DNA from: an uncultured Gammaproteobacteria bacterium
GTDB taxonomy: Bacteria; Pseudomonadota; Gammaproteobacteria; Arenicellales; Poriferihabitantaceae
Length of the DNA: 64,000 nt
Reading direction: 5' to 3'
Assembly (NCBI GenBank): GCA_937992195.1
Contig: CALKKV010000017.1
Span: 20,086 to 84,085 of the forward strand
The notes beneath the pieces are model-generated. The model was not told where the DNA came from, did no database searches, and saw only the letters and a list, made by a program, of their open reading frames with translations. Positions 9,462 through 35,015 of this stretch are shown one piece after another; the stretch's first letter is position 1, and the number at the start of each line of letters is the position of its first letter. The position numbers and the translations under genes are program-made.

Positions 9462-10862
9462 TTAATGCCGTGCAGCGAGCAGTTTTGCCGCTTCAATAGC
9501 CGCCATTTTAACCTGCTCTGGGGCTGTTCCACCAATATGATTTCTCGCCTTGACAGAACCTTCTACCGTGAGCACATCATAAACATCAGATTCAATGCTT
9601 TCAGAGTGGTGTTGCAGCTGTGAGAGCGGGATCTGATCGAGAGATACCTGGTCTGCGATCGCCATGCCAACGACTTTTCCCACAACCTCGTGGGCATCGC
9701 GAAACGCTATTCCTTTTCTTACTAGATAGTCGGCAAGATCGGTGGCCGTGGAATAGCCGTCAGCTGCAGCCTTATACATGTTCTCTGTTTTAAACCTCAC
9801 TTGAGGAAACATCGCCGCCAGCACCTCAAGGCAGATTGTGCAGGTGTCCAATGTGTCAAACATGGGTTCTTTGTCTTCCTGATTATCCCGGTTGTAGGTC
9901 AGCGGTTGACCCTTCATCAGAGTCAGCAAGGCAACCAGATTACCACTCACCCGCCCGGCTTTACCGCGAATTAACTCCGCCACATCCGGGTTCTTTTTCT
10001 GCGGCATAATGCTGGAGCCAGTGCAGAAGCCATCGCCTAAATCCACAAAATCAAAGTTGCCTCCGGACCATAGAACAAGCTCTTCAGCGATCCGAGATAA
10101 ATGCACGCTAAGTAATGCTGCGTGGGCGTTAAACTCAATCACGAAGTCTCGGTCTGAGACCGCATCCAGGCTGTTATTTGACGGCAAATCAAAACCCAGC
10201 GCATCCGAAGTCATTTGCCGGTCAATAGGATAGCTGGTGCCCGCCAGTGCAGCCGAGCCGAGCGGGCATATATTGATGCGCTTACGACAATCTTGCAGCC
10301 GTTCATAATCCCTCTGCAGCATTTGATTCCACGCAAGAAGGTGGTGGCCGAGAGTTACAGGCTGTGCACTTTGCATATGGGTATATCCCGGAATAATATG
10401 CGCCGAGTGCGCTTTGGCGAGGTCGACCAGGGCCTGCTGCAGTCGAGTAAGTATCTCGCACAGATTATCCACGCCGCCCCTCAGGTAGAGGCGCATATCG
10501 GTTGCAACCTGGTCATTTCTTGAGCGGCCGGTATGCAGCTTTTTCCCAGCCTCGCCAATTCTTTCAGTCAGCGCCGCTTCGATGTTCATATGCACATCCT
10601 CGAGCTCGGGAGCCCATTTGAAAGCACCCTCCTCAATTTCAGCAAGAATCTGCTGGAATCCAGACTCGATATCTTGCAAATCCTTTTTGCTCAATACGCC
10701 AACCTTGGTCAACATTCGCGCATGGGCCAAAGAGCCCTGAATATCCTGCGAATACAGTCGCCAATCAAAATCTACTGAAGAGGAAAATGCCTCCATCAGG
10801 CTGTCAGTGGAACCGCTAAAACGGCCGCCCCACAGCTTTTTCTGAGTATCAGAATGTTTCAT
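9462..10862 (-). CDS. argH: Argininosuccinate lyase
   Basis: [29 protein letters not shown]. Confidence 0.98.
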
Positions 10863-10988
10863 AAAGTCTATTTTTAACGTTTGCTAAGGCGTATTTGGAA
10901 TTCGGTCAGTGAAGAACGACTGCTCAACTGAAAAAAACTACCATTTATCGGAAAGATTTGAAAAACAACAATGACTGTAGTCTACTGG

Positions 10989-11107
10989 AACAGCGGGTAG
11001 GTCGAACCACTCGCTAGTCGGGTCTTTACCCCCTTCAGCAGAACCCCCATTCTGTTCGACCCGATCAAATAATTCTACTCCCCTGCTTTTGCAGGGGAGT
11101 TTTTTTT
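10989..11107 (+). ncRNA. Candidate small RNA with three stem-loops and two C5 motifs; family not recognised, 5' end approximate
   Basis: SL1 AGCGGGT(10992-98)/ACTCGCT(11009-15). SL2 GTCGGGTC(11017-24)/GACCCGAT(11058-65) with bulge TTTACCCCCTTC and inner AGCAGAA/TTCTGTT capped by CCCCCA. SL3 is a terminator. Non-Watson-Crick stem pairs are G-U on the + strand. Confidence 0.65.
11077..11107 (+). terminator. Intrinsic terminator
   Basis: ACTCCCCTGC-TTTT-GCAGGGGAGT, perfect 10-bp stem, T run 11100-11107; no + strand CDS ends here. Confidence 0.9.
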
Positions 11108-11480
11108 GTCTGGTTGAAAAATCACGGGTGGCGTCATCTCGGGACTGCATTCAGCTGGATAATATTCGCTCAAACGGTTACATACCAATCTATATTTGCT
11201 GGTTTTTGGTTTTACCATCGCTTTTCTGGCGGATCAGCGACCCTGACGACCGTTCAAAGTGAGAAATTTCCTCAAAAATGCCGGATTATGGCGATATACT
11301 CGCCTACACTCTCCCTTACCCTTTGCTAATAGCTGTTCCAGCTGGAGACGCGGTTGAAATCCAATATGCCCAAGGTAAGAGAATATGGTAGTTTATGAGC
11401 TGAAGGAACAACAATAAGTCGGCCACATTCCTGTATACGTGGATCTTACGTTTTCAACTAATTAAAAACACCTCGGGGTT

Positions 11481-12518
11481 TTGGTCAACGATCACTTCCA
11501 ACTTAATTTTGCTAAAGGCGGGTTTCCTATAAGGTTTACCTGCACGGCTTTGCTCGGCCTGCTACTTTGCTGGGCAATGTATTTGAGCGCAAATTGGCAA
11601 ACACCCATTTTGATGGAATCGGTTATCGGCCATTTACTGATGATTACGGTGTTTGTTGTCGCTTCGCTTTTGCTTATCCATTTTTTCAACGACACAATCG
11701 GCCAGATGAGTCCGCTCTGGGGCATTTGTTTGGCCTGGCTACTAACTGTGCTTGTCGCTGTTGGGATCTACATTGTGATTTTCCTGCTTGCGGGGCGCTA
11801 CGGCACGGAATCAAGTATTCCTATCTTGCGTTACGTTCAGGTTCAGGCTCCACACAAGCTAATGATTTTCGCCTTATTGCTGGGATTTCCCTACTTTTGG
11901 ACGGAAAGAGAAACTTACACCGCCAAAGCGCTGGTCAAGTCTACAAACTCAGATCAGTTTACTAACCTCGGTTTCCGAATTCGCCCCCATTTTCTTTTCA
12001 ATACACTGAATAGCGTGGCGCACTTGATTAGCTTGCATCCGGCACGAGCAGAAAAAGCGCTATATAATCTCGCTGACGTGTTTCGAGTAGTAATGGCTGA
12101 CAAAAGAGATTTGGTGCCGTTAAAAGCCGAACTAGAGCTAGCCGACAAATACCTGTTTTTGGAGAAGACGCGACTCGGAGAAAGACTGCAGGTAGCCACC
12201 AAAGTAGATCCCCATGCGCTTGGAGTAATGGTTCCGGTATTATTACTGCAACCATTGTTAGAGAACGCGGTCTATCACGGAATTGAGACGCGATTTAAAG
12301 GCGGCAGAATTAATATGAGCGTGCAAGTTATCGACAAACACCTCATTATTCAGATAACAAACCCGTTGCCTGAAGGCAGCATTAAGCGAAGCAGCGGTAA
12401 CAAGGTAGCACAGGAAAACTTAAGAGAGAGGATTTACCGAACATTTGGAGCGCGCGGCACATTCGATGCATATGAGGCGGACGAAAGATATACCGTGACT
12501 CTTCGGTTTCCCCTTTGA
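11481..12518 (+). CDS. LytS-family sensor histidine kinase, AlgZ/FimS-like
   Basis: Four N-terminal hydrophobic segments, IRPHFLFNTLN H-box, LQPLLENAVYHG N-box, reduced G-box; argH-algZ-algR synteny. TTG start uncertain. Confidence 0.9.
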   Translation: MVNDHFQLNFAKGGFPIRFTCTALLGLLLCWAMYLSANWQTPILMESVIGHLLMITVFVVASLLLIHFFNDTIGQMSPLWGICLAWLLTVLVAVGIYIVIFLLAGRYGTESSIPILRYVQVQAPHKLMIFALLLGFPYFWTERETYTAKALVKSTNSDQFTNLGFRIRPHFLFNTLNSVAHLISLHPARAEKALYNLADVFRVVMADKRDLVPLKAELELADKYLFLEKTRLGERLQVATKVDPHALGVMVPVLLLQPLLENAVYHGIETRFKGGRINMSVQVIDKHLIIQITNPLPEGSIKRSSGNKVAQENLRERIYRTFGARGTFDAYEADERYTVTLRFPL

Positions 12519-12687: not shown

Positions 12688-13425
12688 ATGAAGTATTTAA
12701 TAATTGACGACGAGTTTCTCGCAAGAGCGAGACTGAAAGAGCTGCTGCTTCGTATTGACCCGAATGCAGAAGTGTTTGAAGCCGAAAATGGTCAACAGGC
12801 GATAGACTTTTGTGAGAAGCACCGGCCGGATACAGCGTTAGTAGACATTCGAATGCCCGGTATTAGCGGTATTGAGCTGGTATACCACTTCTCGGCATTA
12901 GAGAATACGCCGGCAGTGATCTTTACAACCGCCTATAGTGAATACGCGCTGGAGGCATTTGATGCCAATGCTATTGACTATCTTTTGAAGCCAGTGCAAA
13001 TCGATCGTTTGAAGCGGGCTTTGCTAAAGGCAAACCCCATCAGTGAATCACAAACCCAATCGTTGCGTAAAAACTCTCGCAGCATGCATATTTCGATCAG
13101 TCAAAAGGGCAAAATAAAACTAGTCCCTATCCAAAATATTTGTTACCTGAAGGCTGAAAATAAATACGTTATGGTGAAAACTCCGAATGAAGAGTTTTTG
13201 ATGAATGAAACATTAAATAACCTTGAGACTGAGCTCGGCGAGAGTTTTCTTCGGGTTCATCGCAATGCCCTGATCTCTACTGAACATCTCGAAGGGCTGG
13301 AGAAAAATGAGGACGGGCAGTGGTGTGTCTTTTTTCGCGGCATCGACGACACAGTCGAAATAAGCCGCCGCCAGACACCAACTATACGTGCCTGGTTAAA
13401 GAGCCGCGGCCTGGATCAGTCATAA
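12688..13425 (+). CDS. algR: LytTR-family response regulator, AlgR-like
   Basis: REC domain (IDDE, LVDIRMPG, FTTAY, LLKP) plus LytTR domain (FLRVHRNALI, ISRR); follows the AlgZ-like kinase. Confidence 0.88.
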   Translation: MKYLIIDDEFLARARLKELLLRIDPNAEVFEAENGQQAIDFCEKHRPDTALVDIRMPGISGIELVYHFSALENTPAVIFTTAYSEYALEAFDANAIDYLLKPVQIDRLKRALLKANPISESQTQSLRKNSRSMHISISQKGKIKLVPIQNICYLKAENKYVMVKTPNEEFLMNETLNNLETELGESFLRVHRNALISTEHLEGLEKNEDGQWCVFFRGIDDTVEISRRQTPTIRAWLKSRGLDQS

Positions 13426-34292: not shown

Positions 34293-35015
34293 TTAGCCAT
34301 TTGCGACAGCCGCTGAGGAAGTCACATTTTCGTTCTTATCAGAGGCTGTTTTCATTAGTCGGTCGATATGGTCTAGCGTCTTCTCCAAACCGGAGTAATC
34401 CAACAGAACACGGTGAGCCACTCGGTCTTTTACCATCACAATTGACGGGAACCCCTGCACACCTAACTTTCGAACCATTACCATTTCTTCCTGGTGTAAT
34501 ACGCGAAGCGCCTGGCTCTGCATATCCGTAGTGAACTGATTTTTATCCAAGCCAATCTCTTCTGCAATTTCAACCAGTGTAATGATGCTGGAAGGGTTAC
34601 GCGCCTGTGTATAGTAGGCCTTTTGAATGGCTTCGATCATCGAACCTTGCACTTTGGCAGCTTCAGCAGCATTTGTTGATTGGCGACGAGCCGCAATAAC
34701 GGCTCTACAAGCGGGCCAGGTAGAGCGCTTGGGTTCGCACTGAGTCCAAAAATCGAAATTAAATTCAGTGCCTGGAATACGCTGTTTGATCTCTTTCCAG
34801 GTCTCTTGCAAATACTTTTGCATTGATTCCGGCATCGGCTCTTCCGAATCCGGTGCCAGCCCTCCGAGCAGCTCGATCACCTGAATTTTGGAGGCGTATT
34901 TATGCTGAATAGATTTCTTAAGCAGTTTCCACGCAGGCGAAAACCCCCAGCACCAGCTGCACATCGGATCGTGCGCATAATAAATTATCGGCTTGTCGCT
35001 TGCTTCTAATTCCAT
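34293..35015 (-). CDS. DsbA-family (thioredoxin-fold) cytoplasmic protein
   Basis: DPMCSWCWGF, STWPACRAV, GVQGFPS. Confidence 0.9.
   Translation of the reverse strand: MELEASDKPIIYYAHDPMCSWCWGFSPAWKLLKKSIQHKYASKIQVIELLGGLAPDSEEPMPESMQKYLQETWKEIKQRIPGTEFNFDFWTQCEPKRSTWPACRAVIAARRQSTNAAEAAKVQGSMIEAIQKAYYTQARNPSSIITLVEIAEEIGLDKNQFTTDMQSQALRVLHQEEMVMVRKLGVQGFPSIVMVKDRVAHRVLLDYSGLEKTLDHIDRLMKTASDKNENVTSSAAVANG

Follow-up and report, generated by a model that had tools for sequence, protein, structure and literature searches.

The 64,000-nt window analyzed here, taken from contig CALKKV010000017.1 of an uncultured gammaproteobacterium, contains a conserved and structured element at 10990-11107 on the + strand, located between argH and an algZ-like kinase gene (coordinates given without a locus or contig name refer to the window). 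We read this element as the gene of a small RNA (sRNA) of a new family, which would be activated by AlgR, would probably act in trans and would pair through its C-rich motifs with G-rich mRNA sites. As a whole, this reading is in our judgment evenly poised, and our confidence in it is lower than in its first parts, because all steps have to hold together. That the sRNA family is previously undescribed is well supported; its kind, a riboregulator with a C-rich seed, is known.

In the proposed mechanism, AlgR, encoded downstream of the sRNA, would activate a weak promoter through two direct repeats that lie 21 bp apart and abut the -35 element. The transcript would fold into a variable 5' hairpin, a domain displaying two CCCCC motifs, an A/U-rich linker and an intrinsic terminator. 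By analogy with sX13 of Xanthomonas and with RNAIII, the C motifs would then pair with GGGG/GGGGG, typically in ribosome-binding regions, and repress several mRNAs, possibly with the involvement of Hfq.

Structure and conservation of the RNA

The predicted RNA is composed of two hairpin domains, a linker and a terminator, which are arranged as follows.

10990..11107, + strand: predicted sRNA of ~115-118 nt; 5' end placed from the -10 region, 3' end at the U-tail
10992..11015, + strand: stem-loop 1, in which the sequence changes and the pairing is kept
11017..11065, + strand: stem-loop 2 domain with a near-invariant core, comprising outer stem, internal loop and inner hairpin
11017-11024 with 11058-11065, + strand: outer stem 2 of 8 bp, from energy fold and covariation
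11029-11033, + strand: first C5 run, unpaired, in the internal loop enclosed by stem 2
11037-11043 with 11050-11056, + strand: inner hairpin, from the energy fold, with the second C5 run as its loop
11044-11048, + strand: second C5 run, unpaired, in the apical loop of the inner hairpin
11066..11076, + strand: A/U-rich linker, unpaired in the fold, 5' of the terminator
11077..11107, + strand: Rho-independent terminator; stem 11077-11100 with 10 pairs (7 of them G-C) and a loop of 4; T8 at 11100-11107

The region 10989-11107 folds on the + strand with a minimum free energy of -49 kcal/mol, compared with a shuffle mean of -26.5 (sd 3.2), which corresponds to z = -6.94, and none of 200 shuffles is as stable. 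The - strand of the same region folds less well (z = -3.74). In the fold, stem-loop 1 is followed by the second domain holding both C5 runs, the A/U-rich linker and the terminator. Both CCCCC runs, read directly in the + strand sequence, are unpaired, and exactly one G-U pair on the + strand is found in each of the three upstream stems. An initial annotation, made from the sequence alone, had described two hairpins plus a terminator with a T8 run and no CDS to terminate, one G-U pair per upstream stem on the + strand, and two unpaired CCCCC runs at 11029-33 and 11044-48. The energy fold, a terminator scan and the orientation of argH bear out this description, including the positions and the unpaired state of the C runs.

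The whole 618-nt argH-algZ spacer was used as the query against 40 relatives. Matches were found in 10 of them, all within positions 49-253 of the query (window ~10911-11115). The aligning region comprises the RNA and ~75 bp upstream of it, and the remaining spacer is unalignable even in the closest relative. In 15 aligned copies, both C5 runs fall within a near-invariant core at ~11021-11058. Across genera, a core of ~45 nt with both C5 runs is near-invariant, and stem 1 and the terminator are rewritten with their pairing preserved.

Covariation was evaluated with 27 aligned sequences, 26 of them distinct. In this alignment 93.2% of the cells are paired, as against 37-50% with the partners slid. 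Changes on both sides are present in 18 of 29 pairs, and the observed values were reached in none of 500 shuffles. Double-changed pairs amount to 6/6 in stem 1, 4/8 in outer stem 2, 8/10 in the terminator and 0/5 in the inner hairpin, where three of the five pairs never vary. Covariation supports three of the four helices, namely stem 1, outer stem 2 and the terminator. The inner hairpin is invariant and lacks covariation, so its pairing is taken from the energy model, a point that counts against our reading. The comparison of argH-algZ spacers from relatives, suggested in the initial annotation, thus finds the C runs and stems conserved. Moreover, two pairs run through a G-U/A-U/G-C series (GU16/AU6/GC2 and GU22/AU4), which fits an RNA from the + strand only; together with the better + strand fold, this is in line with the strand assigned earlier.

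No ATG, GTG or TTG was seen within 10990-11107 on the + strand, and the + strand open reading frames (ORFs) of at least 30 aa in this region begin at 11089 or later. Because no start codon was seen in the RNA and its homologues differ by 1-nt indels, the element is taken to be non-coding. Two - strand ORFs of 70 and 47 aa that overlap the element were rejected as spurious on account of the same indels. Neither the 64-kb window as a whole nor eight loci of relatives and paralogues contain a match to any Rfam 15 family at its gathering score, in agreement with the earlier failure to recognize the family. The best sub-threshold match is the Burkholderia anti-hemB RNA (RF02837; 24.4 bits, gathering score 49.5), which likewise has a C-rich stretch in the first hairpin followed by a terminator. 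Membership in this family was rejected, since the match is below threshold, contains large unaligned insertions and is formed by the terminator plus a CCCCU string.

A covariance model (R1) was built, and the window scores 129.8 bits with it. Within the family, R1 locates the RNA in 15 of 69 genomes, belonging to 6 of 14 genera. Among 124 genomes from the other families of the order it gave one weak, doubtful match, and in a sample of 150 other families of the class it gave none. In addition, an exact-pattern scan with a 26-nt core pattern yielded 16 places among 185,579 species genomes. Fifteen of these are full-length model matches, all in sponge-associated gammaproteobacterial metagenome-assembled genomes, and the titles of the pattern-matched records include Ca. 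Poriferihabitaceae, Ca. Spongiihabitans and the order Arenicellales. The core pattern also occurs in seven metagenome contigs, all of them model matches. The family is therefore, as far as searched, confined to sponge-symbiont gammaproteobacteria (Arenicellales, Ca. Poriferihabitaceae).

Several weaker hits were set aside. An exact core match in a record titled Dehalococcoidia (L047, 1498-1526), from an unrelated phylum, was taken as a chance match; it falls within an HhH-GPD glycosylase gene, covers model positions 43-71 only and scores 23.9 bits. Loci L057, L058, L084 and L085, with 31-35 bits, were considered too weak for membership, and neither L057 nor L058 adjoins argH or algZ. Genomes having the RNA contain one to three copies, with three each in G001 and G007. 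Genome G009 contains two very similar argH-sRNA loci on contigs C26 and C31 (L021 and L035), one of them at a contig end, a pattern pointing to heterogeneous strains or to duplication within the bin and not to true paralogy.

It is extremely improbable that the element is no gene at all and represents repeated or mobile DNA, or else a stray terminator working in both directions, with hairpins formed by chance. The presence of several copies in some genomes would fit such a view, but there are only one to three per genome, and the synteny of the locus is kept across at least six genera. The terminator hairpin scores on the - strand too, but the compensatory changes and the G-U pattern are strand-specific and a conserved promoter-like region lies 5' of each copy. 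The lone match outside the clade, in the glycosylase gene, is limited to a part of the core. We conclude that 10990-11107 (+) is very probably a real RNA gene, although a search for RNA sequencing runs covering this stretch yielded none.

The genes surrounding the element are the following.

9462-10862, - strand: argH (TIGR00838, 629 bits)
11481..12518, + strand: algZ/fimS-like LytS-type histidine kinase (PF06580, 71.8 bits); start codon uncertain
12688..13425, + strand: algR-like REC-LytTR response regulator (LytTR domain, 81.1 bits); proposed activator of the sRNA promoter

The orientation of argH is away from the element, and the terminator therefore does not follow any CDS. The algZ-like kinase has the same orientation as the sRNA and begins 373 nt downstream of it. 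It is without any NCBIfam match, and PF06580 is its sole Pfam domain; translation may begin elsewhere than at the TTG listed for it, which is simply the earliest start codon in the frame. Homologues of the REC-LytTR regulator carry the JGI label AlgR.

At this main locus the RNA is located between the divergent argH and the same-orientation algZ in nearly all genomes having it, and element and algZR are gained or lost together. Such an arrangement would also be expected of a cis-acting leader or attenuator of algZ-algR, which would be transcribed from the conserved promoter, whose terminator would set read-through and whose core would be a protein or ligand sensor in place of a seed. The extra copies in G001 and G007, however, are positioned beside hemH, or beside DUF748/AsmA-type and TauD-type genes, with no algZ nearby, and the next gene converges on them. 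Copies in such unrelated contexts, converging on the next gene, speak for independent units and against leaders. Moreover, the distance between terminator and algZ varies from ~120 to 370 nt, and the sequence in between shows no conservation, not even in the closest relative. With 10 bp and T8 the terminator is strong, no competing anti-terminator appears in the energy fold of 10989-11107, and in G016 the ~900 nt downstream of the sRNA contain no algZ match. We therefore regard a leader function as very unlikely, and the sRNA as likely to be an independent unit; some read-through from its terminator into algZ is possible. It has its own terminator, and a promoter-like region, recognized by its conservation, is kept in 18/18 copies. 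The reading as an sRNA made in the initial annotation stands as far as a conserved, structured, non-coding + strand unit is concerned, and the convergent extra copies argue that this unit is free-standing; its action in trans stays at the level of the probable.

Promoter boxes and the proposed link to AlgR

The region upstream of the RNA contains the following putative promoter elements. The AlgR/LytTR-type boxes and the link to algZR are new here and were absent from the initial annotation.

10920..10928, + strand: distal LytTR/AlgR-like half-site CTGCTCAAC, 5/9 match; starts precisely 21 bp before the proximal box does
10941..10949, + strand: proximal AlgR-like box CCATTTATC, 6/9 match; followed by 8 bp and then the -35 element
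10958..10963, + strand: putative -35 element TTGAAA; TTGA invariant in 18 promoters
10978..10986, + strand: putative -10 region, TCTACT at 10981-10986 (17-bp spacer) or TAGTCT at 10978-10983 (14-bp spacer)

Eighteen promoters were aligned on the invariant TTGA, and matches to the Pseudomonas aeruginosa AlgR site CCGTTCGTC, a consensus taken from passages of PMC4064291 and PMC4787818, were counted at every offset. The proximal box is found at a fixed position of -17 from the -35 element in 18/18 promoters, with a mean match of 7.17/9 (range 5-9), and two unlinked paralogue promoters match CCGTTCGTC in 9/9 positions. At its two ends the box has CC and TC in every one of the 18 promoters. A change of CC to TA abolished AlgR binding at mucR in P. 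aeruginosa, according to PMC4787818. The second-highest offset on the same strand is located exactly 21 bp upstream of the main box, with a mean of 4.67/9, and most other offsets reach ~1-3. LytTR regulators bind two imperfect direct repeats ~12 bp apart, as stated in an excerpt of PMC4064291. The pair of boxes in the window fits this rule, in that a 9-bp box and a 12-bp spacer add up to 21 bp, with a weak distal repeat. The -10 region is conserved as T-N-T/A-A-N-T at the same spacing in the aligned promoters; being weak and without an A at position 2, it is consistent with an activator-dependent promoter. For the opposite strand, agreement with the AlgR consensus peaks at a mean of 4.94/9, at a position overlapping the -35 element (window 10960-10968; for example TTGACGAAC in some copies). 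Either the -35 sequence gives rise to this match by coincidence, or there may be a third half-site in inverted orientation.

When the site of the window was withheld from training, a weight matrix still scored it at 33.2 bits, the highest value among all positions of both strands of the 3.76-Mb genome of the window (G000). The runner-up (25.6 bits) is an exact CCGTTCGTC on contig C11 at ~34850-34880 (-), corresponding to L059 2550-2600. It lies ~330 nt upstream of a REC-REC-CheW-MCP-CheA operon, whose CheA-type hybrid kinase contains Hpt, HATPase, CheW and REC domains. This gene order is presumably that of pilG-pilH-pilI-pilJ-chpA. The same paired boxes are present at the orthologous promoter of the chemosensory operon in G003 (24.5 bits). 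In G001, G003 and G007, other loci resembling pilG or chpA contain no box, the best score being 7.6 bits. A third matrix match (C24, 23.4 bits) was discarded as a probable false positive, as it is located inside + strand coding ORFs. It is reasonably likely that the sRNA promoter is under AlgR or another LytTR regulator.

The distribution of AlgR points in the same direction. With a cut-off of E <= 1e-30 for AlgR orthologues, and likewise for other LytTR proteins, the sRNA is present in seven of the 13 genomes of the genus (G000, G001, G003, G004, G007, G009 and G012), and an AlgR orthologue is detected in exactly the same seven; the other six are without both. In five of these six genomes argH was checked and is kept in all five, and in G002, G005 and G011 Pfam places a glycoside hydrolase family 3 gene in the position of the sRNA-algZR block. 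At the family level, AlgR is found in 13 of the 15 sRNA-bearing genomes. We consider the unlinked paralogues with perfect boxes a stronger argument for the link to AlgR than this co-occurrence.

Several observations weigh against control by AlgR. Because the sRNA adjoins algZR, the co-occurrence may partly reflect inheritance, gain or loss as one block. The sRNA occurs without a detected AlgR in G018, a genome that is 98% complete, and in G016, where the sRNA lies ~900 nt from a contig end. Conversely, nine genomes contain an AlgR-like protein without a solid sRNA match; seven of them belong to genus g12, in which convincing, divergent copies are found beside an algZ-like gene in only two of nine genomes. 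A simple sigma-70 scan detects no + strand promoter at this position, and the putative -10 region is without the usual A at position 2. The boxes of the window (6/9 and 5/9) are among the weakest in the family. In addition, P. aeruginosa AlgR sites are often not 12-bp-spaced repeats, as noted in part of PMC4064291.

The G018 copy itself (L030, G018:C13, 1501-1625, - strand) is located beside argH with no algZ within 1.5 kb, and has a degenerate terminator, many pairs of which are broken in the model alignment. Possibly this copy is in decay following the loss of algZR.

Control by a regulator other than AlgR, either another LytTR protein or an unrelated one, with a merely coincidental likeness to the AlgR box, is unlikely. 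In its favour, the genome has three LytTR proteins, the window's box matches in 6/9 positions only, and linkage alone could give the co-occurrence with algZR. Moreover, a LytTR protein encoded on contig C9 and the box-bearing chemosensory operon are common to G000 and G003 only. The two other LytTR proteins, however, are restricted to 2/13 (G000 and G003) and 1/13 (G000) genomes of the genus. So narrow a distribution excludes them as regulators of the conserved boxes in G001, G004, G007, G009 and G012, five genomes that have the sRNA and AlgR and are without both other LytTR proteins. The exact CCGTTCGTC at unlinked paralogue promoters also argues against a coincidental likeness, as do the invariant CC and TC ends, given the effect of the CC-to-TA change in P. 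aeruginosa. We accordingly keep AlgR as the preferred regulator.

The two further LytTR-domain proteins of G000 are encoded on contigs C9 (64226-64909) and C12 (28514-29398), and look like recent acquisitions. The C9 protein, which shares the G000/G003 distribution of the chemosensory operon, could be the regulator of that operon.

Mode of action and candidate targets

Judged by analogy, action of the sRNA through base-pairing of its C runs with G runs has a slightly better than even chance of being correct. Together with its flanks, the first C motif presumably looks like the anti-Shine-Dalgarno end of 16S rRNA in which a C takes the place of one U. This likeness fits a pairing with ribosome-binding sites, and speaks against the titration of a protein. 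The A/U-rich linker at 11066-11076 could be part of an Hfq-binding module, and an hfq gene is present in the window's genome.

For the target search, 10,617 sites with four or more G (G4+) were evaluated by duplex energies against the two seeds, with crude ORFs as gene calls. Well-pairing GGGG sites are not enriched at start-codon regions, which account for 1.1-1.5% at every energy cut-off. The top candidates in start regions encode hypothetical proteins, a Sel1-repeat protein and a methyltransferase, and are functionally unrelated. Exact complementarity over 9 nt or more was obtained for 151 words, of which one is the antisense strand of the sRNA gene itself and the rest are patternless. A duplexfold ranking of 2,517 start regions is dominated by long-loop artefacts. 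Neither the site, word nor duplex rankings thus provide a coherent target set in the window's genome. The missing enrichment and the missing target set tell against regulation by pairing; a target search on crude ORFs is a weak test, and we do not take it as evidence against base-pairing as such.

One site was seen in two genomes. The sequence GGGGTAA, complementary to the first C motif, is located 25-35 nt upstream of the CheW-like gene in G000 (L059 ~942-950, - strand) and in the equivalent L077 spacer of G003, and the spacer has otherwise diverged. In addition, the ribosome-binding site of the pilH-like gene in the box-bearing operon contains a 4G run in G000 as well as in G003. The GGGGTAA upstream of the CheW-like gene is a hint at a possible target site, which with two genomes is not statistically secure.

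The absence of convincing mRNA targets would also be expected if the free-standing sRNA bound and titrated a protein that recognizes the C-rich core, in place of pairing with mRNA. The whole 45-nt core, including the paired inner helix, is invariant, which exceeds the needs of a short seed. Nevertheless, we know of no bacterial global regulator that is sequestered on C5 motifs, although no search aimed at one was made, and the likeness of the first motif to the anti-Shine-Dalgarno sequence has its natural place in pairing. Exposed C-rich loops, moreover, have a documented base-pairing role in sX13, as described in sections of PMC3771888. Protein titration appears quite unlikely on this balance, and base-pairing remains the preferred mode of action.

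Relation to known systems

The closest parallel in design is sX13 of Xanthomonas, which among gammaproteobacterial sRNAs pairing with G-rich sites near start codons is the best documented. Repression by sX13 requires 4C/5C loops and 4G/5G target motifs near start codons, its targets include pilG and pilH, and it acts without Hfq, according to PMC3771888. The RNA described here is likewise short, with stable stem-loops that expose CCCC/CCCCC, and the pil targets of sX13 have a counterpart in the recurrence of the promoter motif at the pilG/H/I/J-chpA-like operon. The resemblance concerns the design only. In sX13 three C motifs are located in apical loops, whereas here the two C5 runs are divided between an internal and an apical loop; regulator and taxon are also different. 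With the Rfam models, no sX13 match is obtained in 10800-11550 even at E <= 10.

RNAIII, which in the Staphylococcus aureus agr system is driven by the LytTR regulator AgrA, is a transcript of ~500 nt that also encodes a peptide, and its C-rich loops act on G-rich ribosome-binding sites. The RNA found here differs from it in being ~115 nt long and non-coding, and there is no homology between the two. The use of C-rich loops against G-rich sites by RNAIII is mentioned in PMC3771888, and AgrA is described in an excerpt of PMC4064291 as a LytTR-family regulator that binds paired direct repeats. As in agr, a LytTR regulator is encoded beside a regulatory RNA, which it is here proposed to activate. 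The RNA is divergent from the operon in agr, whereas here it has the same orientation and is located upstream of algZR; the system is moreover a Gram-negative AlgZR without genes for an autoinducing peptide.

A bolder proposal, which we put forward tentatively and hold to be rather doubtful, is that AlgZ/AlgR has a dedicated effector sRNA, with up to three siblings per genome, that carries much of its output. Such a system would be a Gram-negative counterpart of AgrA-RNAIII, in which AlgR occupies paired LytTR boxes at the promoter of each sibling and the C5 motifs silence mRNAs with G-rich ribosome-binding sites. If this were true, the targets might include the Pil-Chp-like chemosensory operon with the same boxes, forming a feed-forward loop for surface- or host-associated behaviour. 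In Pseudomonas, pili, biofilm and virulence traits are regulated by AlgZR (FimS-AlgR), a system that has been studied intensively and of which the signal and the full output are still open. A conserved sRNA that is tied to algZR by position and by evolution, and whose copies all have AlgR-type boxes at their promoters, points to an undescribed post-transcriptional arm of this system. Interest in the element would rise considerably if the circuit from AlgR to the sRNA held true. The element would also be a further independent case of the design in which exposed C runs face G-rich ribosome-binding sites, beside those of Xanthomonas, Staphylococcus and Helicobacter, and it is a first candidate riboregulator for these sponge symbionts, which are abundant but uncultured. 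Sponge metatranscriptomes and heterologous reporters could be used to test the idea with the covariance model and the promoter matrix.

No description of an sRNA between argH and algZ was found in the full-text literature, a search that did not extend to many subscription papers. Binding of AlgR to the promoter of an sRNA gene has a precedent in P. aeruginosa prrF2, as given in a passage of PMC5790918; PrrF is unrelated in sequence to the RNA described here and is Fur-controlled. The boxes themselves are of the same 9-bp type as in the P. aeruginosa AlgR regulon, consisting of CCGTTCGTC and its one- and two-base variants, and the box at ~-45 has the position of algD-RB3. They differ from the usual AlgR layout in forming a 21-bp-spaced pair that abuts the -35 element. 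The gene arrangement is presumably shared as well, with algZ-algR divergent from argH in PAO1 as it is in the window.

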